Under the pieces are notes generated by a model. It was not told where the DNA came from and did no database searches. It worked only from the letters and a program-made list of their open reading frames with translations. 64,000 nucleotides of DNA from Candidatus Staskawiczbacteria bacterium RIFOXYB1_FULL_38_37 (lineage in GTDB: Bacteria; Patescibacteriota; Minisyncoccia; Minisyncoccales; Staskawiczbacteraceae), in contig MHPK01000003.1 in the NCBI GenBank assembly GCA_001822075.1, positions 9,437 to 73,436 of the forward strand, given 5' to 3'. Shown piece by piece: positions 21,431 through 51,335 of this stretch (position 1 is the stretch's first letter; each line of letters begins with the position of its first letter). A program made the position numbers and the translations under genes.

Positions 21431-23245
21431 TTACTTTTTTTCTTGGATTTCTTTTTTAATTTTTTCAATAAATTTTTCTAAAGGCATTTGACCATCGTCT
21501 CCTTTTCCGCGGGCTCTTACAGAAACAGCAGAAGCTGAAATTTCTTTATCGCCCAAAATCAAAAGATAGGGGATTTTTTGCATTTCAGCTTCCCTGATTT
21601 TTTTACCCAAAGTTTCATTTTCATCTCTTAACTCAACGCGCAAATTATTATCTTTTAATTTTTTAATAATTTCTTTGGCATAGTCTGCGTGCTTTTCAGA
21701 AATAGGTATTACAGAAACCTGAATGGGGGACAGCCACAAAGGAAACGCCCCTTCGTATTTTTCAATCAAAAATGCCATTGTTCTTTCAACAGCCCCTATT
21801 GAAGAGCGGTGTATCACGATTGCTTCTTTTTCTTTGCCGTCTGAATCTGTGTAAACTAAATTAAATCTTTTTGGACCCACAAAATCATATTGCACAGTAA
21901 AGGCTGTATCTTCTTTGCCAGAAAAATTTTTCATTTGGATATCTATTTTTGGCCCGTAAAAAGCAGCCTCATTTTCTGCCTCAAAAAACGGGGCGTTCTT
22001 TTCTTTCAAAACTTTTCTTAAGATATTTTCTGCAAAATCCCATGCCCTATCATCTTTGTAATATTTTTTTGAATCTCTTTTATCTCCCAAAGACAATCTG
22101 TATCTGTAATCAACTCCGGATTTTAATTCAAATATGCCGGCCATATCTTCTATTAATTTAAGAGCCAAGTTTATTTCTTTTTCTGCCTGGTCTTTTTGGC
22201 AAATTATGTGAGAGTCGGCAAGGCAAAAACATCTTACCCTTGCCAGGCCGGTCAGTTCTCCAGATTTTTCATACCTGTATTGTTTAGCTAATTCTGCAAT
22301 TCTAAATGGCAGTTCTCTGTAAGACCTTGGTTTTGCCAAATAAAGCTGGTAGTGGTGGGGGCAGGTCATAGGCCTTAAAATAAGTTCTTCTTCGTCAACT
22401 TTCATCACAGGATACATGGTGTCTTTATAATAAGGATAGTGGCCGGATTTTTTAAATAAATCAACTTTTGCCAAATCCGGAGTGCATACATGTTTGTATC
22501 CTCTTTTTATTTCTTCGTCAACAATCAATCTTTCCAGCTCTCTTCTTATGGCAGTGCCCTTTTCTGTATATAGGGGTAATCCTTTTCCAACAATATCAGA
22601 AAATATGAACAGGTCTAGTTTTTTTCCTAAAACTCTATGGTCGCGTTTTTCTGCCTCCTCCTGCATTTTTACATAATCTGAAAGCTCTTTTTCAGTTGTA
22701 AAAGCCAAACCATAAATGCGGGTTAACATTTTATTTTTTTCAGAGCTCTTCCAGTAAGCCCCTGCAATTCTTGTGAGCTTAAAAGCTTTTGGGTTTATTT
22801 CTGAAGTGTTTTTTACATGAGGCCCTTTGCACAAATCTGTAAAAGCTGGTGGGATGTCCGACATCCCACCACTGGTGGGATGTCGGACATCCTTTAAAAC
22901 TATCGTGGTTATGTAAACAGAAACATTTTTGCCGGGCAGTTCTTTTATCAGTTCTAATTTGTATGGCTGGTCTTTAAATAATTTTTTGGCCGCCAGTTTT
23001 GTGATATCTTTTTTGATAAATTTTTGGTCTTGTAAAATCAGCTCTTTCATGCGAGCTTCAACTTTTTTGATAAACTCGTCTTGTCCGCCTTCGCTAATGG
23101 CTTGGGCGGGTAATAAAAAGTCGTAGTAAAATCCGTTTTCAATTGCCGGGCCCATTCCTAATTTTGCTTTTGGGTGCAATTCAAGCACAGCTTGCGCCAT
23201 TATATGCGATAGGGAATGACGAATGTTTTCAATATTTTCTGCCAT
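21431..23245 (-). CDS. thrS: threonyl-tRNA synthetase (no TGS domain)
   Basis: Editing-domain start HSLSHIMAQAV, DLCKGPH, class II core and anticodon-binding domain. Confidence 0.95.
   Translation of the reverse strand: MAENIENIRHSLSHIMAQAVLELHPKAKLGMGPAIENGFYYDFLLPAQAISEGGQDEFIKKVEARMKELILQDQKFIKKDITKLAAKKLFKDQPYKLELIKELPGKNVSVYITTIVLKDVRHPTSGGMSDIPPAFTDLCKGPHVKNTSEINPKAFKLTRIAGAYWKSSEKNKMLTRIYGLAFTTEKELSDYVKMQEEAEKRDHRVLGKKLDLFIFSDIVGKGLPLYTEKGTAIRRELERLIVDEEIKRGYKHVCTPDLAKVDLFKKSGHYPYYKDTMYPVMKVDEEELILRPMTCPHHYQLYLAKPRSYRELPFRIAELAKQYRYEKSGELTGLARVRCFCLADSHIICQKDQAEKEINLALKLIEDMAGIFELKSGVDYRYRLSLGDKRDSKKYYKDDRAWDFAENILRKVLKEKNAPFFEAENEAAFYGPKIDIQMKNFSGKEDTAFTVQYDFVGPKRFNLVYTDSDGKEKEAIVIHRSSIGAVERTMAFLIEKYEGAFPLWLSPIQVSVIPISEKHADYAKEIIKKLKDNNLRVELRDENETLGKKIREAEMQKIPYLLILGDKEISASAVSVRARGKGDDGQMPLEKFIEKIKKEIQEKK
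22848..22892. repeat. GC-rich palindrome GGTGGGATGTCCGACATCCCACC plus a partial second copy, in frame in thrS
   Basis: Read directly; translates on the minus strand as HPTSGGMSDIPPA, inserted before the conserved FTDLCKGPH. Confidence 0.85.
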
Positions 23246-27033: not shown

Positions 27034-27669
27034 ATGATTTATCCGAATTTTAGTGAAGAAAAAAAGTTGTGGAAAAAGGGATATAAGTTGGTTGCAGGAT
27101 TAGATGAAGCCGGCAGAGGCCCTTTGGCTGGGCCAGTTGTGGCTGCGGCCGTAATTTTTAATTTTAAATTTCCAAATAAATTTTTAATTAAACAATTTCC
27201 AATGATAAAAGATTCCAAAAAAATGACAGTTAAACAACGGGAAGCTACGTATGAATTTTTGACTAATCACCCGGATATAAAGTGGGGAGTGGGCATAGTT
27301 TCAGAAAAAGTTATAGATAAAATAAATATTTTAGAAGCCACAAAACTGGCAATGAAAAAAGCAGTCGGTGGGGTGTCGGACACCCCACCGGACTTTTTGC
27401 TTTTAGACGGGAATTTTAAATTAGAGAATATTAATTTGCCGCAAAAAAGCATTATAAAAGGGGATTCAAAAGTTTTTTCAATTTCTGCCGCTTCCATTAT
27501 AGCAAAGGTGACGCGGGACAGAATAATGCAGAAATACCATAAAAAATATCCTGAATATAATTTTTTAAAACATAAGGGATATGGCACAAAAGCTCATTTT
27601 GCCAGCTTGCAAAAATTCGGGCCGTGTAAAATACACAGAAAAAGTTTTTACCCCGTTAAATTTTGTTGA
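27034..27669 (+). CDS. rnhB: ribonuclease HII
   Basis: GLDEAGRGPLAGPVV and LLLDGN motifs. Confidence 0.9.
   Translation: MIYPNFSEEKKLWKKGYKLVAGLDEAGRGPLAGPVVAAAVIFNFKFPNKFLIKQFPMIKDSKKMTVKQREATYEFLTNHPDIKWGVGIVSEKVIDKINILEATKLAMKKAVGGVSDTPPDFLLLDGNFKLENINLPQKSIIKGDSKVFSISAASIIAKVTRDRIMQKYHKKYPEYNFLKHKGYGTKAHFASLQKFGPCKIHRKSFYPVKFC
27366..27391. repeat. 26-nt GC-rich palindrome CGGTGGGGTGTCGGACACCCCACCGG, in frame in rnhB
   Basis: 12-bp arms; codon-checked translation GGVSDTPP; identical copy at 33897-33922. Confidence 0.9.
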
Positions 27670-33549: not shown

Positions 33550-34095
33550 ATGCTTACAATAAGATTAACAAGAAAAGGTAAAAAAAATCAGCCGTTTTTC
33601 AGGGTGGTTTTAATAGACAAAAGGAGGTCTGCCAAAGGCGGAAGGGCTGTTGAGGCGCTTGGAAATGTTGACCCTCTTACAAAAAGAAAAAATTTAAAAA
33701 AAGACAGAATTTTATACTGGATTTCAAAGGGAGCGCAAACTTCAGACACAGTGCATAATTTGTTGATTTCTGAAAAAATTATAGAAGGCAAGAAAATTCA
33801 TGTTTCAAAATTAAGCAAGAAGAAACAGGCAGACCTGGCTGCGCAGGCAGGTCTGGCTGCGCAGGCAGGAATAGCCAAAGAAAAATCCGCAAAAAGCGGT
33901 GGGGTGTCGGACACCCCACCGGCTAAAGAGTCAAAAACAGCAGAAGCAAAAGCCCTAGAAACCGGAGCTCCGGTTGAAATACTGCCAGCCCCAGTTGAAC
34001 CAGCCGCGGCTGAAACTCCAGCAGAACCCGAAAAACCGGCAGAACCCGCCTCCGCTGAAAGCTCCGGCGAGGCAAAGCAGCCCCCAACAGCATAA
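33550..34095 (+). CDS. rpsP: ribosomal protein S16 with ~100-aa repeat-built C-terminal extension
   Basis: MLTIRLTRKGKKNQPFFRVV start; Ala/Glu/Pro-rich tail. Confidence 0.9.
   Translation: MLTIRLTRKGKKNQPFFRVVLIDKRRSAKGGRAVEALGNVDPLTKRKNLKKDRILYWISKGAQTSDTVHNLLISEKIIEGKKIHVSKLSKKKQADLAAQAGLAAQAGIAKEKSAKSGGVSDTPPAKESKTAEAKALETGAPVEILPAPVEPAAAETPAEPEKPAEPASAESSGEAKQPPTA
33827..33871 (+). repeat. 18-nt direct repeat x2.5 (CAGGCAGRYCTGGCTGCG) in the rpsP tail
   Basis: Codon-checked: encodes QADLAAQAGLAAQAG; CAGACCTG and CAGGTCTG are reverse complements. Confidence 0.85.
33897..33922. repeat. second copy of the 26-nt palindrome, in frame in rpsP
   Basis: Identical to 27366-27391; translates GGVSDTPP. 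Confidence 0.9.
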
Positions 34096-34170: not shown

Positions 34171-34199
34171 TTGACAAGGTGTCTTAAATATGCTATTAT
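34171..34199 (+). promoter_or_regulatory. sigma70-type promoter (TTGACA-17-TATTAT)
   Basis: TTGACA 34171-34176; TATTAT 34194-34199; -35 embedded in GTGTCT/AGACAC/GTGTCT alternative hairpins. Confidence 0.55.
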
Positions 34200-34205
34200 T
34201 AAAAT

Positions 34206-34362
34206 ATAGGGTGAAATAAGGCTTTTGGGAGATTTCTCTTTCATAATCGGTTTAGCAGCTCCGGCTTCTGAATGCGAGAATGAGGTTCAATAAAAAGTTC
34301 AATAACTTTTTAAGAGAACAAAGAGAAATCCCCCAAGCGCCTTGAAATTTTTTCCTTTTTTT
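34206..34362 (+). ncRNA. candidate ~155-nt structured RNA, unassigned
   Basis: Long closing helix GGCTTTTGGGAGATTTCTCTTT (34220-34241) / AAAGAGAAATCCCCCAAGCGCC (34320-34341); internal AAAAAGTT-CAAT-AACTTTTT hairpin; T-runs after the helix. Confidence 0.35.
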
Positions 34363-34406
34363 CAAATCATTAGTTCAATACAGGAAACAACAGAACATCA
34401 GATTCA

Positions 34407-34461
34407 CCCAGTTAAATAATCCTGCTTCGGCAGGATTAGCGCGGAGCGCTATTTAACCGGG
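34407..34461 (+). ncRNA. candidate compact three-way-junction RNA motif
   Basis: Outer stem CCCAGTTAAATA/TATTTAACCGGG (11 of 12 pairs) enclosing ATCCTGC-TTCG-GCAGGAT and AGCGC-GGA-GCGCT. Confidence 0.35.
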
Positions 34462-34540
34462 GTAAATTCTTGATTTTCCAGAAGTTATAATTTTTCTGTC
34501 CTGAGTTTATCAAAGGGTTTAGTGGTTTGAAAAAAGGGAA

Positions 34541-34645: not shown

Positions 34646-34960
34646 ATGGCAAAAGAAAATGATAAAGAATTTCTTGAGTACATTGTCAAAGAGTTAGTTG
34701 ACCACCCAAAAGACGTCAAAGTTGACAGAAAAGTTGACGAAATGGGAGTATTGCTTTCTTTGAAAGTAAACCCAGAAGATATGGGTCAAATCATTGGAAG
34801 AGAAGGCTCAACTGCCAAGGCAATCAGGAACTTAGTCCGAATTGTCGGATTAAAGAACCACGCCAGAGTGAACCTCAAAATTGAGGAACCAGAAGGCGGA
34901 CGTGCTCCAAGGCCTGAAAGAAAAGAAGTTTCTTCAGACATAGATAACATTTCTCTGTAA
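34646..34960 (+). CDS. KH-domain RNA-binding protein (YlqC/UPF0109-like)
   Basis: GQIIGREGSTAKAIRNLV (GxxG KH motif); position between rpsP and trmD. Confidence 0.85.
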   Translation: MAKENDKEFLEYIVKELVDHPKDVKVDRKVDEMGVLLSLKVNPEDMGQIIGREGSTAKAIRNLVRIVGLKNHARVNLKIEEPEGGRAPRPERKEVSSDIDNISL

Positions 34961-34978
34961 TTTACAGAAAAACAAAAA

Positions 34979-35008
34979 AGCGTTATTATAAATCAACGCT
35001 TTTTGTTT
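34979..35008 (+). terminator. intrinsic terminator
   Basis: AGCGTT ... AACGCT followed by TTTTTG. Confidence 0.6.
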
Positions 35009-35013
35009 TCTGG

Positions 35014-35087
35014 CATAACACATAACATAGAACACATAACAAAAAACTCCGTCGTTTTGTTCCATGTTTTATGTTCCATGTTCCATG
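35014..35087 (+). repeat. heptad-repeat element copy A (CATAACA-type arm, spacer, ATGTTCC-type arm)
   Basis: CATAACACATAACATAGAACACATAACA ... TTTTGTTCCATGTTTTATGTTCCATGTTCCATG; its last ATG is the trmD start. Confidence 0.85.
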
Positions 35088-35825
35088 ATAAAGTTTGATA
35101 TTATTACAATTTTTCCGGAAATTTTTAAGTCCTATTTAGGCGAGAGTTTAATTGCGCGGGCGCAGAAAAAAAAGCTTATAAAAATAAATATTCATAATTT
35201 AAGAAAATGGACAAATGACAGCCATAAAACTGTTGATGACAGGCCGTTTGGCGGGGGATTGGGAATGGTTCTAAAAGTAGAACCAATTTTTAAAGCAGTA
35301 AAACAAATAAAAAAAAGTCCCGCCGCAGCGGGATCCCGCTATGGCGGGACAAAAGTAATTTTATTTACTCCGCGCGGAAAAAAGTTTGACCAAAAATTAG
35401 CTAATAAGCTTTCTAAATTAGACCAAATAATTTTTATTTGCGGAAGATACGAGGGCGTTGATGAAAGGGTGGCAAAAAAAATAGCTGACATGGAAATTTC
35501 AATTGGAGACTACGACTTAATGGGCGGGGAATTGCCAGCTATGGTGGCAATAGAAACAATTTCCAGATTAATTCCAGGAGTTTTGGGCAAGCCCCAATTA
35601 TTAAAAGAGAGAATAACAAAATCCGGCGGATTTATTGAATATGCCCAATACACCCGCCCGCCAAAATTTTTTGTTAACCTGCCAAAATTTCAAAAGAAAT
35701 TTAGAGGGGCAAAAAAATTTAGGCGGGCGAAGCCCGAAGTTTGGTCTGTCCCTAGAGTGCTCTTGTCTGGAGACCACAAAAAAATAGAGGAATGGAAAAA
35801 AAAGCATAACAAAATCATTGAATAA
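35085..35825 (+). CDS. trmD: tRNA (guanine37-N1)-methyltransferase
   Basis: FDIITIFPEIF, GRYEGVDERV, GGELPAMV motifs; ATG 35085 is aa 8 of the track ORF. Confidence 0.95.
   Translation: MIKFDIITIFPEIFKSYLGESLIARAQKKKLIKINIHNLRKWTNDSHKTVDDRPFGGGLGMVLKVEPIFKAVKQIKKSPAAAGSRYGGTKVILFTPRGKKFDQKLANKLSKLDQIIFICGRYEGVDERVAKKIADMEISIGDYDLMGGELPAMVAIETISRLIPGVLGKPQLLKERITKSGGFIEYAQYTRPPKFFVNLPKFQKKFRGAKKFRRAKPEVWSVPRVLLSGDHKKIEEWKKKHNKIIE
35317..35350. repeat. 34-nt GC-rich nested palindrome in frame in trmD
   Basis: GTCCCGCC-GC-AGCGGGATCCCGCT-AT-GGCGGGAC; codon-checked translation SPAAAGSRYGGT in the variable loop before KVILFTPRG. Confidence 0.85.
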
Positions 35826-35857
35826 CATTAATTTTTGTGTTATAAATTTAAATGTGG

Positions 35858-35940
35858 GGGCGTGTGGCTGAGCAGCAAAGGCATCAGACTGTAAATCTGA
35901 CGAGGTCTCCTCTTCGCAGGTGCAAGTCCTGCCGCGCCCA
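35858..35940 (+). tRNA. tRNA-Tyr (GTA), long variable arm, no encoded CCA
   Basis: Acceptor GGGCGTG/CGCGCCC, anticodon arm TCAGA-CTGTAAA-TCTGA, variable-arm stem GAGG/CCTC, T-arm GCAGG-TGCAAGT-CCTGC (G at position 55 is non-canonical). Confidence 0.8.
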
Positions 35941-35984
35941 CTTTGCAAAGCAAAGTGTCCTGAGCTTGTCGAAGGGCACAGAGT

Positions 35985-36056
35985 GCCGATGTAGCTCAGT
36001 GGCAGAGCAACTCCATGGTAAGGAGTAGGTCGCCGGTTCAAATCCGGCCATCGGCT
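35985..36056 (+). tRNA. tRNA-Thr (GGT)
   Basis: Acceptor GCCGATG/CATCGGC, D-arm GCTC-AGTGGCA-GAGC, anticodon arm ACTCC-ATGGTAA-GGAGT, T-arm GCCGG-TTCAAAT-CCGGC. Confidence 0.9.
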
Positions 36057-36063
36057 CAAAATA

Positions 36064-36138
36064 CATAACACATAACATAGAACATATAACAGCACGATTT
36101 TTTCGTTTTGTTCCATGTTCCATGTTTCATGTTCCATG
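36064..36138 (+). repeat. heptad-repeat element copy B
   Basis: CATAACACATAACATAGAACATATAACA ... TTTTGTTCCATGTTCCATGTTTCATGTTCCATG; ends 5 nt before the rpmG ATG. Confidence 0.85.
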
Positions 36139-36142
36139 ATGG

Positions 36143-36304
36143 ATGGCGGCAAAAAAACCATTTTTAAAGATGCAATGCTCTGTTTGCAAAACAACAAACT
36201 ATTTTACAAAAAAGAGCAAAGCAACAGCAGAAAAAAAACTTGAGCTTAAAAAGTTTTGCAAAAAGTGCAAAAAACACACCATGCACAAAGAAGGCAAGAG
36301 ATAA
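36143..36304 (+). CDS. rpmG: ribosomal protein L33
   Basis: Own reading (53 aa, below track cutoff): MAAKKPFLKMQCSVCKTTNYFTKKSKATAEKKLELKKFCKKCKKHTMHKEGKR; two CxxC pairs, LELKKFC..C.KHT.HKE signature. Confidence 0.85.
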   Translation: MAAKKPFLKMQCSVCKTTNYFTKKSKATAEKKLELKKFCKKCKKHTMHKEGKR

Positions 36305-48412: not shown

Positions 48413-48578
48413 GTTAAAGGGGTCAGGTACCTTTGATTGTCATTCTAATCGTGATACACTTAATTAATGCCAAGGGTTTTACGAGTATAAGGGTTAAGGG
48501 GAGGGTTAAGGGGTCAGGTACCTTTGATTGTCATTCTAATCGTGATACACTTAATTAATGCCAAGGGTTTTACGAGTA
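48413..48578 (+). repeat. tandem duplication (75 + 74 nt, ~92-nt period) of the RayT left end
   Basis: GTTAA(A)GGGGTCAGGTACCTTTGATTGTCATTCTAATCGTGATACACTTAATTAATGCCAAGGGTTTTACGAGTA occurs twice. Copy 2 carries the real ATG (48558). In copy 1 the same ATG is followed by a stop after 7 codons. Confidence 0.9.
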
Positions 48579-49245
48579 GATATTGGAAATCAAATTTACC
48601 ATGTCCTTAATCGGGCAAATGCCCGTTTGCCGATTTTTTTTAAAGAACAAGATTATCAGTTGTTTGAGAACATTCTTGAAAATGGCCGTGAAAAGTTTGA
48701 TATGCGTATTTTAGCTTACTGCTTGATGCCGAATCATTTTCACTTAGTCTTGCAACCTAAGGAAGATGGCGGTTTGCAAAGGTTTATGCAGTGGGCGACC
48801 TTAACACACACGCAACGTTGGCACAGCCAAAACAAAACCATAGGCTCGGGGCACCTGTATCAGGGCAGATACAAATCGTTTATCATACAAGAAGACAACC
48901 ACTTATTGGCAGTCATCAGATATGTGGAGCGCAACCCGCTCCGAGTTAATATTGTCAAACAAGCAGAAGATTGGCGCTTTTCAAGTTTGTACCGCAGGAT
49001 GTTTCCAAAAGAATTTAAAATGCATAAAAGAATTTTGTCAGACCTGCCGATTGATATGCCCAAAGATTATCTCGCTTTTGTTAACCAACCGCAAACAAAC
49101 GAAGAAATCGCGGCTATACGTTATTCGGTTAACCGCGGCAGACCTTTTGGCAATTGTGAGTGGGCTGATAAAATTATTAAGGCGTTCGGGCTTGAATCAA
49201 CCGTACGGAGCAGGGGCAGGCAAATCAAAGGTACCTGACCCCTTT
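48416..49245 (+). mobile_element. RayT gene bracketed by 23-bp inverted repeats
   Basis: AAAGGGGTCAGGTACCTTTGATT (48416-48438, and one A shorter at ~48508-48529) versus its exact reverse complement AATCAAAGGTACCTGACCCCTTT (49223-49245); each holds the AGGTACCT palindrome. Confidence 0.65.
48558..49238 (+). CDS. REP-associated / IS200-like Y1 (HUH) tyrosine transposase (RayT-like)
   Basis: YHVLNRANARLPIF, HUH motif LMPNHFHLVL, catalytic-Tyr region IRYVERNPL. Confidence 0.85.
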   Translation: MPRVLRVDIGNQIYHVLNRANARLPIFFKEQDYQLFENILENGREKFDMRILAYCLMPNHFHLVLQPKEDGGLQRFMQWATLTHTQRWHSQNKTIGSGHLYQGRYKSFIIQEDNHLLAVIRYVERNPLRVNIVKQAEDWRFSSLYRRMFPKEFKMHKRILSDLPIDMPKDYLAFVNQPQTNEEIAAIRYSVNRGRPFGNCEWADKIIKAFGLESTVRSRGRQIKGT

Positions 49246-49336
49246 GTTTGACCCCTTTGTTCGACCCCCCCTTTGTTCGACCCCTTTGTTCCTTTGTTCT
49301 TTGTTCCCTTCTTTGTTCCCTTTGTTCCTTTGTTCA
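49238..49336 (+). repeat. degenerate pyrimidine-rich short tandem repeats (GACCCCTTTGTT decaying to CCTTTGTT)
   Basis: Read directly; directly upstream of the 49340 promoter. Confidence 0.8.
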
Positions 49337-49374: not shown

Positions 49375-49611
49375 ATGAAAGAAGATTTTACAGAATTAGT
49401 TGAATATTTGGATGAGAAATTTGGCAAAGTTGCAGAAGATTTTAAGGAATTAAAAGATAATTTTAATTTACTGCAAAATTCTGTTGATGCTTACGCAGTA
49501 AAAGCCGATACATATTTTCAGGAGATGACCATGCTGTCTGAAAAGGTTAACCGCCACGATAAGTGGCTTTTACAAATTGCTGAAAAATTAGGCATTAAAT
49601 TAGAATACTAA
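49375..49611 (+). CDS. small coiled-coil protein, twin paralog 1 (78 aa)
   Basis: MKEDFTELVEYLDEKF... ...QIAEKLGIKLEY; both ends identical to 51372..51626. Confidence 0.65.
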   Translation: MKEDFTELVEYLDEKFGKVAEDFKELKDNFNLLQNSVDAYAVKADTYFQEMTMLSEKVNRHDKWLLQIAEKLGIKLEY

Positions 49612-51254: not shown

Positions 51255-51335
51255 ATGGTGGCTGACCCCCATTTCATTTCACATTTCCCATTTCCCCCAT
51301 TCTTTTCACATTATTCACTCACCCCATTATTCGCT
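51255..51335 (+). repeat. degenerate pyrimidine-rich repeats (CCCATTT-type) starting with ATGGTGGCTGACCCCCATTT
   Basis: Read directly; the first 20 nt are the near reverse complement of AAATGGGGACAGCCACCAT at 48328-48346. Confidence 0.7.

Follow-up and report, generated by a model that had tools for sequence, protein, structure and literature searches.

The window analysed here, a stretch of 64,000 nucleotides from Candidatus Staskawiczbacteria bacterium RIFOXYB1_FULL_38_37 (contig MHPK01000003.1), contains two palindromic elements built of 7-nt units, one (copy A) running into the start codon of trmD and the other (copy B) occupying the spacer between tRNA-Thr and rpmG (Table 1). Both are ~75 nt long, consist of four NNNAACA heptads, a spacer of 16-17 nt and four TGTTNNN heptads, and end in ATGA. 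The arms are nearly the same in the two copies, the spacers diverge, and Tandem Repeats Finder detects a period of 7 with 4.0-4.3 units on all four arms. The shared heptad architecture described in the initial annotation is thus borne out, and so is its statement that the copies bracket trmD, tRNA-Tyr and tRNA-Thr. The same annotation judged the arms to be only partly complementary, and on the + strand it is indeed just the AACA/TGTT cores that pair, with the variable triplets (CAT versus CCA) mostly mismatched. The copies lie in direct orientation, 1050 bp apart. Arm queries of 21-22 nt with up to three mismatches match copies A and B only (0.00 matches expected from shuffles), and a relaxed search of the 64-kb window gave no extra copies and no solo arms. 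The left arm holds TAA/TAG in two frames; the right arm is free of stops and repeats ATG at 7-nt intervals, and its coding in the window amounts to a 7-codon in-frame run or a 5-codon upstream open reading frame (ORF; ATGTTCCATGTTCCATGA).

Table 1. The two heptad elements, their neighbouring genes and the transposase gene of the window.
Feature	Position (strand)	Description
khpA	34646-34960	KH-domain gene; ends just before the terminator/promoter module
Overlapping terminator/promoter module	34961-35009 (+)	khpA intrinsic terminator, stem GCGTT..AACGC and T-run
Copy A, left arm	35014-35041 (+)	CATAACA CATAACA TAGAACA CATAACA; includes TAA/TAG stop triplets
Copy A, spacer	35042-35057 (+)	16 nt, AAAAACTCCGTCGTTT; tip of central stem AACAAAA/TTTTGTT
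Copy A, right arm	35058-35085 (+); 35058-35088 with terminal TGA	TGTTCCA TGTTTTA TGTTCCA TGTTCCA
trmD	35085-35825 (+)	tRNA m1G37 methyltransferase; Pfam tRNA_m1G_MT, E 5e-50
tRNA-Tyr	35858-35941 (+)	
tRNA-Thr	35985-36057 (+)	
Copy B, left arm	36064-36091 (+)	CATAACA CATAACA TAGAACA TATAACA
Copy B, spacer	36092-36108 (+)	17 nt, GCACGATTTTTTCGTTT; small hairpin CACGA...TCG
Copy B, right arm	36109-36136 (+); 36109-36139 with terminal TGA	TGTTCCA TGTTCCA TGTTTCA TGTTCCA
rpmG	36143-36304 (+)	Ribosomal protein L33; Ribosomal_L33 match; directly 3' of copy B
RAYT-like Y1 (HUH) transposase gene	48558-49238 (+)	226 aa; Pfam Y1_Tnp, E 1e-16

The two copies belong to a dispersed family. A scan with the exact pattern CATAACAYATAACA-N15-45-TGTTCCATGTT, using one genome per species, yielded 82 stretches from about two dozen assemblies, almost all of them metagenome-assembled genomes (MAGs) of Patescibacteria/Parcubacteria labelled as Staskawicz-, Azam-, Moranbacteria and other bins. 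Two source bins are labelled Gammaproteobacteria and Ignavibacteria and are probably mis-binned. The viral contigs scanned held no copies. A generic detector that demands the AACA/TGTT cores found 84 elements, 55 asymmetric (type 1) and 29 symmetric (type 2), with the common plan TCA-(NNNAACA)3-5-spacer-(TGTTNNN)3-5-TGA and often ACG.CGTCGT(AG)TTT in the spacer. These sequences are best explained as a family of 60-90-bp foldback repeats with the plan TCA-(YRNAACA)3-5, spacer, (TGTTNYR)3-5-TGA. The type 1 elements come from 19 assemblies, include both window copies and have a CATAACA-rich left and a TGTTCCA-rich right arm. Most type 2 elements lie in the MAG JBAZBH01, many with a near-identical spacer and several nested in a larger palindromic repeat, and these copies bear the marks of a MITE/REP-like burst (MITE, miniature inverted-repeat transposable element). 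In L055 (59-330) one type 2 element is found ~150 nt 3' of the 16S rRNA end, apparently in the rRNA spacer of JBAZBH01. Searches against Rfam at gathering and permissive E-value thresholds returned tRNAs only and no match to the element, and a literature search with the exact strings and with heptad, MITE and candidate phyla radiation (CPR) terms found no description of it in the library searched. The heptad foldback repeats are a previously undescribed family of small palindromes present in many ultra-small Patescibacteria genomes.

The family is strongly polar with respect to genes. Type 1 elements were oriented by sequence alone, and a gene start was scored where a start codon with 80 or more open codons behind it lay within about 20 nt of the element end. 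The TGTTCCA end adjoins a gene start in 43 of the 55 elements, compared with 12/55 for the opposite end and 19.5% for random positions, and the link of the element to translation start sites is therefore real. On inspection the count rises to 46/55, since three elements scored as lacking a start do have one (two precede short rpmG genes, and one locus is cut at its end). The positional bias to gene starts hinted at in the initial annotation holds; the regulatory role specific to trmD and rpmG that its reading implies does not survive the comparison of orthologues given below. A terminal ATG is present in 52/55 elements, and in 41 of these 52 the next base is A, versus 25 of 56 ordinary window genes, so the terminal TGA is part of the palindrome and mirrors the TCA at the other end.

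In many cases the downstream gene starts on the element's own final ATG (offset 0), as for rplX (L24), rplD (L4), rplC (L3), rplB (L2), rplW (L23), rpsF (S6), rpmE (L31), frr (RRF), tsf (EF-Ts), ssb (SSB), clpP (ClpP), trpS (TrpRS), fusA (EF-G), trmD (TrmD) and others. Elsewhere the start follows at an offset of 4-17 nt, often 7-8 nt, as for rpsM (S13), rpmG (L33), rplK (L11), rpmF (L32), secY (SecY), greA (GreA), rnc (RNase III), PilB, PilC and PilT. At the other end, ~30 of the 55 elements have an upstream same-strand stop codon either 2-6 nt before the left arm or inside the first heptad (1-5 nt in, usually TAA). With a stop at the left foot and a start at the right foot, the element makes up the entire intercistronic gap, for example at rplN|rplX, rplC|rplD, rplW|rplB, rpmJ|rpsM and rplO|secY; ribosomal-protein operons are a frequent setting of such stop-abutting elements. 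Window copies A and B follow a terminator/promoter and a tRNA, respectively, and not a stop codon. In all, the element is found ahead of about 40 unrelated genes. A "three-frame stop array" was rejected as a general rule, as the left arm of the window copies closes two frames and other heptad families, CGAAATC arrays among them, have no stops.

At the window locus the trmD start is the ATG at 35085-35087, the last one of copy A. This assignment, already made in the initial annotation, agrees with the Pfam match and with the alignment of 80 orthologues, all of which have an ATG at the aligned position and nearly all of which begin ATGAT(T/A/C/G)AA(A/G)TT(T/C)GA. Copy B begins 6 nt past the 3' end of tRNA-Thr, and its terminal CCATG, correctly placed 5 nt ahead of the rpmG ATG in that annotation, is separated by 4 nt from the ATG at 36143.

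The 80 orthologues (L083-L162; 68-81% amino-acid identity) came from a TrmD scan of metagenomes and amount to 409 kb, an unbiased sample, unlike the pattern-selected loci L001-L082. A CATAACA element occupies the trmD site in one of the 80 (L125), and this is the single element of the CATAACA family in the 409 kb. In L088, L093, L098, L122, L137 and L143 the site is empty, with the ATG straight after the terminator/promoter module, and other relatives have unrelated palindromic inserts there. At the tRNA-Thr|rpmG site, the window and L071 (CAZREI01) are the sole carriers of the element; it is present there in 0/80 of the orthologous loci, L125 included. The order trmD-tRNA-Tyr-tRNA-Thr-rpmG is syntenic in relatives without the repeats. 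The elements are thus best explained as insertions or as turnover-prone fillers of junctions, and would not be ancestral leaders of trmD or rpmG.

Several other inserts were seen at or near these junctions. L086 and L130 carry a palindromic insert (GTCGTCATTGCGAGGAGCC...CCTCGCAATGACAA) at the junction upstream of trmD. A small palindromic repeat, CCCAGTTAAATAAT...TATTTAACCGGG, lies at 34405-34463 in the window; this terminal-repeat family recurs at trmD or rpmG junctions in L083/84, L105, L111, L122 and L151, and in L045 and L046 a member is inserted into, or truncates, CATAACA elements. In L071 (540-1270) a GIY-YIG nuclease ORF lies between tRNA-Tyr and tRNA-Thr, and tRNA-Thr is split by a ~200-nt insertion that is probably an intron.

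As RNA, the window copies fold into hairpins of -17.5 and -22.5 kcal/mol (z-scores -2.5 and -3.7). Pairing in type 1 elements involves the AACA/TGTT cores and the central stem only, the variable triplets being mostly unpaired on the sense strand. When the arms of 33 distinct 4+4 elements were compared in mirrored pairing, no excess of heptad-level covariation was found (71.7% paired cells versus 71.6% in shuffled arms). The antisense strand folds better than the sense strand in 54/55 elements, with means of -28.5 versus -20.4 kcal/mol, because the A.C and C.A mismatches of the sense strand become G.U and U.G. DNA folding parameters give the same strand direction, and a weaker trend of this kind (27 to 12) is seen in other heptad families. 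Such weakening of the sense strand is unlike a selected mRNA helix; we therefore infer that the palindrome is kept for a reason at the DNA level, and also that the transcript is under selection for weak structure around the start codon.

The CATAACA family is one of many. The 45 distinct tRNA-Thr|rpmG spacers fall into 17 short ones of 1-55 nt and 28 long ones of 60 nt or more, and 19 of the long ones contain period-7 arrays of quite different sequences (TAGGTTT, CATGAAA/CGTAAAA, TAGCGTC, TAGAAAA, GATTTAT, CTAAATC, AATTTGA). The arrays examined are typically arranged as array, spacer and inverted array, ending a few nt before the ATG. Period-7 palindromes also precede rpmF and rpsP and occur at junctions within ribosomal-protein operons, where a site that holds a CATAACA element in one genome may be taken by some other periodic palindrome in a second genome. 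Of 70 heptad palindromes outside the CATAACA family, 43 adjoin a gene start and 27 of these adjoin an upstream stop too. Short tandem arrays in the unbiased 409 kb are predominantly of period 7 (n = 79, compared with 10 of period 6 and 20 of period 8), as they are in the pattern-selected loci (289, 12 and 65, respectively). A crude ORF mask puts 56 of these 79 in intergenic DNA, whereas it counts no more than about 35% of the sample as non-coding. The 7-nt period thus characterises the lineage as a whole, and the window family appears as one of many heptad "dialects". The window itself has further arrays at 49237-49335 (GACCCCTTTGTTC three times, then CCTTTGTTC six times) and at 51265-51325 (CATTTCC), each just 5' of TTGAC(G/C)-17-TATAAT-7-ATG, a leaderless-type promoter arrangement; the genes that follow are two paralogues starting at 49377 and 51374.

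The likely transcription of the window copies can be read from their surroundings. The loop of the khpA terminator hairpin holds the -10 of a TTTACA-17-TATTAT promoter, and this module is kept in the relatives (L083-L162) with TATTAT/TATAAT as the -10 hexamer; in many of them the trmD ATG comes directly after its T-run. No -35/-10 match was found within the element, the sole promoter-like site being the one upstream in the khpA terminator loop. Since the module lies directly upstream, most of the trmD 5' leader is, in all likelihood, copy A. Copy B, in our main account, would be transcribed as the spacer between tRNA-Thr and rpmG. A Shine-Dalgarno (SD)-like motif precedes only 9 of 56 window genes and upstream regions are A/T-rich, so that translation initiation in the window genes is apparently SD-independent. 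The -10-like hexamers of the window have no positional peak that would indicate general leaderless transcription. An altered anti-SD matching the right arm was considered and rejected, as the single available 16S 3' end (L055) is the canonical CACCTCCTT.

Two other features upstream of trmD should be mentioned. Between rpsP and khpA lie 550 nt of non-coding DNA, in which a strong promoter-like site (TTGACA-17-TATTAT, 11/12) is followed by a T-run and ~140 nt in which 34218-34241 can pair over a distance with 34320-34343; this region (34171-34365) has no Rfam match and may encode a small RNA that is not annotated. The perfect palindrome CGGTGGGGTGTCGGACACCCCACCG, rich in GC, recurs at 27366-27391, 33897-33922 and 22847-22898 and is REP-like or terminator-like; one copy is inside a 3' extension of rpsP.

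The heptad element shares many features with REP/REPIN (BIME) sequences and with MITEs such as Correia, ERIC and Nezha (PMC3184786). All are short, non-coding, multi-copy, extragenic and imperfect palindromes that form hairpins and are co-transcribed with their neighbours, and filled and empty sites, a burst in one genome and RAYT-type Y1 genes in the same genomes complete the likeness. The heptad element differs in that its arms are tandem 7-nt units and not a unique terminal inverted repeat (TIR) or a GC-rich REP stem, and in its near-absolute polarity to genes with boundaries at the codon level (stop|element|ATG). As in MITEs there are terminal inverted repeats (the mirror arrays with their TCA/TGA ends) and dispersed copies with filled and empty sites, but a target-site duplication (TSD) was not seen. 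As in REP/REPIN sequences an extragenic palindrome forms a hairpin, but neither a RAYT gene flanked by the same repeats nor a 5' GTAG tetranucleotide at the hairpin foot was found; GTAG is confined to a subset of spacers (..CGTCGTAGTTTT) and is absent from both window copies.

The codon-level placement resembles that of MIRU (mycobacterial interspersed repetitive units; Supply 1997, summarised in PMC3184786), units of 40-100 bp that are tandemly repeated, contain a small ORF translationally coupled to both neighbours and have ends overlapping the stop and start codons of these neighbours. Both occupy intercistronic gaps of operons, are transcribed polycistronically, abut stop and start and are absent from homologous sites in relatives, whereas the heptad element is a single foldback unit with internal heptads, has no through-ORF and belongs to another phylum. 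The Neisseria REP2 repeat is dispersed and provides ATG, 5' untranslated sequence, promoter and ribosome-binding site (RBS) (PMC3184786). Like REP2 and the upstream inverted repeats of Borrelia (PMC3184786), the heptad element lies directly upstream of genes and donates the ATG and 5' untranslated sequence, but unlike REP2 it has no detectable promoter or SD. We therefore place it among interspersed palindromic repeats but outside strict membership of these families, for lack of a TSD (MITE), of a cognate RAYT gene and GTAG (REPIN), of a through-ORF (MIRU) and of a promoter and RBS (REP2). Nor do the features of a structured cis-regulatory RNA apply, as there is no Rfam match and no helix supported by covariation.

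More distant comparisons concern architecture or a possible mode of action. The Foldback (FB) transposons of eukaryotes are kilobase-scale, have transposase-encoding relatives and have arms of short tandem subrepeats; inverted arms of tandem subrepeats around a central loop are common to both, which is an architectural analogy only. The ribbon-helix-helix repressor omega of inc18 plasmids binds contiguous WATCACW heptads in direct and inverted orientation. The heptad element likewise has two or more contiguous 7-bp units with a conserved core, in direct and inverted orientation, and might work in a similar way, although the heptad elements are mostly intra-operonic and not at promoters. In the polycistronic mRNA of phage T7, the RNase III sites are hairpins that contain internal loops and separate the cistrons; they, too, could serve as a model of how such a hairpin works, not of what family it belongs to.

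The account that we consider probable is that of a polar, MITE/REPIN-like foldback DNA repeat of heptads that is co-transcribed and compatible with translation and that inserts or turns over at gene boundaries. In the polar subtype of the window, the CATAACA-rich arm with its TAA stops faces the upstream stop codon, tRNA or terminator, and the TGTTCCA-rich arm the downstream gene, which starts at the last ATG or within 17 nt. The palindrome would act at the DNA level, some agent propagating or maintaining it as a hairpin-forming repeat, while the different "synonymous" heptads on the two arms would keep the sense RNA weakly structured. As the element supplies both stop and start codons, its insertion between cistrons of an SD-poor genome could be tolerated. 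A positive role for the host, e.g., juxtaposing stop and start for re-initiation or providing a processing site, is possible.

Candidate mobilisers were sought among the transposase genes. The best NCBIfam match of the RAYT-like gene in the window is the REP-associated tyrosine transposase (73 bits versus a cut-off of 80), so that enzymes of the kind that mobilise REP sequences are encoded in this genome. The gene is flanked by a 21-nt inverted repeat, AAGGGGTCAGGTACCTTTGAT / ATCAAAGGTACCTGACCCCTT (flanks 48417-48578 and 49226-49246), and preceded by a perfect 71-nt tandem duplication that spans its first 7 codons. L017 contains a RAYT-like gene together with IS200 TnpA, and the latter, too, has other hairpins and no heptad arrays at its flanks. 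The hairpins flanking the RAYT-like genes in the window and in L017 (GGGGTCAGGTACC... and GTCGAGGACCGTCCTCGAC) differ from the heptad arrays, and RAYT/IS200 was rejected as the mobiliser. Mobilisation of single-stranded DNA by an HUH-type enzyme would still be a reasonable model, given the hairpin, the lack of a TSD and the strand asymmetry.

A number of observations weigh against a mobile repeat, beginning with this mismatch of hairpins. No cognate transposase for the heptad element was found, and no autonomous partner or related insertion sequence sharing the TIRs was seen in 8-kb genome blocks. Comparison of filled (window, L125) and empty (L122) trmD sites gave no target-site duplication, the TCA..TGA flanks being inverted. 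Copies are only slightly more similar within a genome than between genomes (0.81 versus 0.74), hence no sign of recent bursts outside JBAZBH01, and the invariance of AACA/TGTT is partly by construction since the detection pattern requires these cores. In orthologous copies (window versus L125, window versus L071, L042 versus L081) the arms are more conserved than the spacers, which could reflect constraint by the propagation machinery or gene conversion but also a function for the host. Heptad palindromes at most long tRNA-Thr|rpmG spacers and at many ribosomal-protein junctions give the impression of something required rather than of sporadic parasites. Lastly, the foldback-repeat account leaves the universal 7-nt period unaccounted for.

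Part of this evidence would fit a functional intercistronic or leader RNA device, in which the stem feet join stop and AUG for termination-reinitiation, or in which an RNase III cut frees near-leaderless cistrons. The element spans the gap from stop to start exactly, it is enriched at ribosomal-protein and translation genes in operons, other heptad palindromes substitute at the same junctions, and the genome is SD-poor with rnc present in the window; in L149 and L161 the rpmG ATG comes ~1-2 nt after tRNA-Thr, which makes a processed, near-leaderless rpmG mRNA plausible. We nevertheless hold such a device to be unlikely, as compensatory covariation is lacking, the hairpin is consistently weaker on the sense strand, opposite to a selected mRNA helix, the element is missing from the same junctions in most relatives, the window gives no general leaderless promoter signal, and the right arm contains out-of-frame upstream AUGs. 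A wider proposal, doubtful as well, would make the heptad-array foldback cassettes a lineage-wide, functionally required punctuation of polycistronic mRNA in SD-poor Patescibacteria, filling the gap from stop or tRNA to start and serving re-initiation or excision, with a heptad-reading machine setting the 7-nt unit. If this were so, cassettes in the gaps would juxtapose stop and start, or their excision would yield near-leaderless cistrons, and the heptad-reading machine would be a protein oligomer or a process of replication or recombination. In line with the iterated protein-binding sites suggested in the initial annotation, the heptads could also be sites, arranged in arrays, at which a small DNA-binding protein oligomerises, reading 7 bp at a time and acting as a roadblock, a regulator or at a nucleoid or partition site. 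A 4-bp core at strict 7-bp phase, mirrored arms without pairing covariation, a leftmost unit (AATCACA) that fits the omega consensus WATCACW and the dominance of period 7 among tandem repeats in the relatives are consistent with this. The many unrelated heptads that share the same architecture and junctions argue against a single sequence-specific binder and would call for many cognate proteins in ~1-Mb genomes, and placement in essential operons and at codon level points to constraints at the level of translation; we give this option rather little credence.

The remaining explanations fare worse. A hairpin on the minus strand acting as a one-way terminator or as antisense RNA is in keeping with the stabler antisense fold in 54/55 and the agreement of the DNA parameters, but a terminator was rejected because no U-run would follow the antisense hairpin (only 4/55 left flanks have at least six A in 10 nt), and with AU-rich stems and no antisense promoter evident the idea is very improbable. 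The view of the two copies as conserved cis-elements of trmD and rpmG, that is, as a leader, riboswitch or ribosomal-protein autoregulatory site, draws on their position directly at two translation-gene start codons and on z-scores of -2.5 to -3.7. It is effectively refuted by the orthologues, with the element absent from 79/80 trmD loci and from all but one other rpmG site, most orthologous sites being empty or filled with unrelated sequence; about 40 other downstream genes, no Rfam match and no covariation leave it a very low probability. Scarcely any probability at all is left for chance, or for the idea that the copies are direct repeats at the borders of a trmD-tRNA segment that was integrated or duplicated. 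The latter could be suspected from two direct copies 1050 bp apart that bracket tRNAs, yet the gene order is syntenic without the repeats. As for random microsatellites without bias towards gene starts, the case that the initial annotation had itself set against its reading, it fails on the recurrence of the same architecture in many genomes, with zero chance matches expected, and on the 43/55 elements at gene starts.

Patescibacteria/CPR account for much of the diversity of bacteria, and their tiny genomes leave little space for dispensable DNA. Yet their most conserved operons (S10/spc ribosomal-protein genes, tRNA-rpmG and trmD) are interrupted by periodic palindromes of 60-130 nt. As the right arm is rich in ATG, ORF callers extend genes into it (e.g., MFYVPCSM-TrmD), and recognition of the element corrects such gene-start annotations. 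In uncultured lineages the family also provides a marker with which genome dynamics can be followed and strains typed. The bias towards period 7 (79 to 10 for period 6 and 79 to 20 for period 8) points to some molecular process, and the stop|element|ATG arrangement provides a concrete system in which to study the translation of internal cistrons where Shine-Dalgarno sequences are rare.

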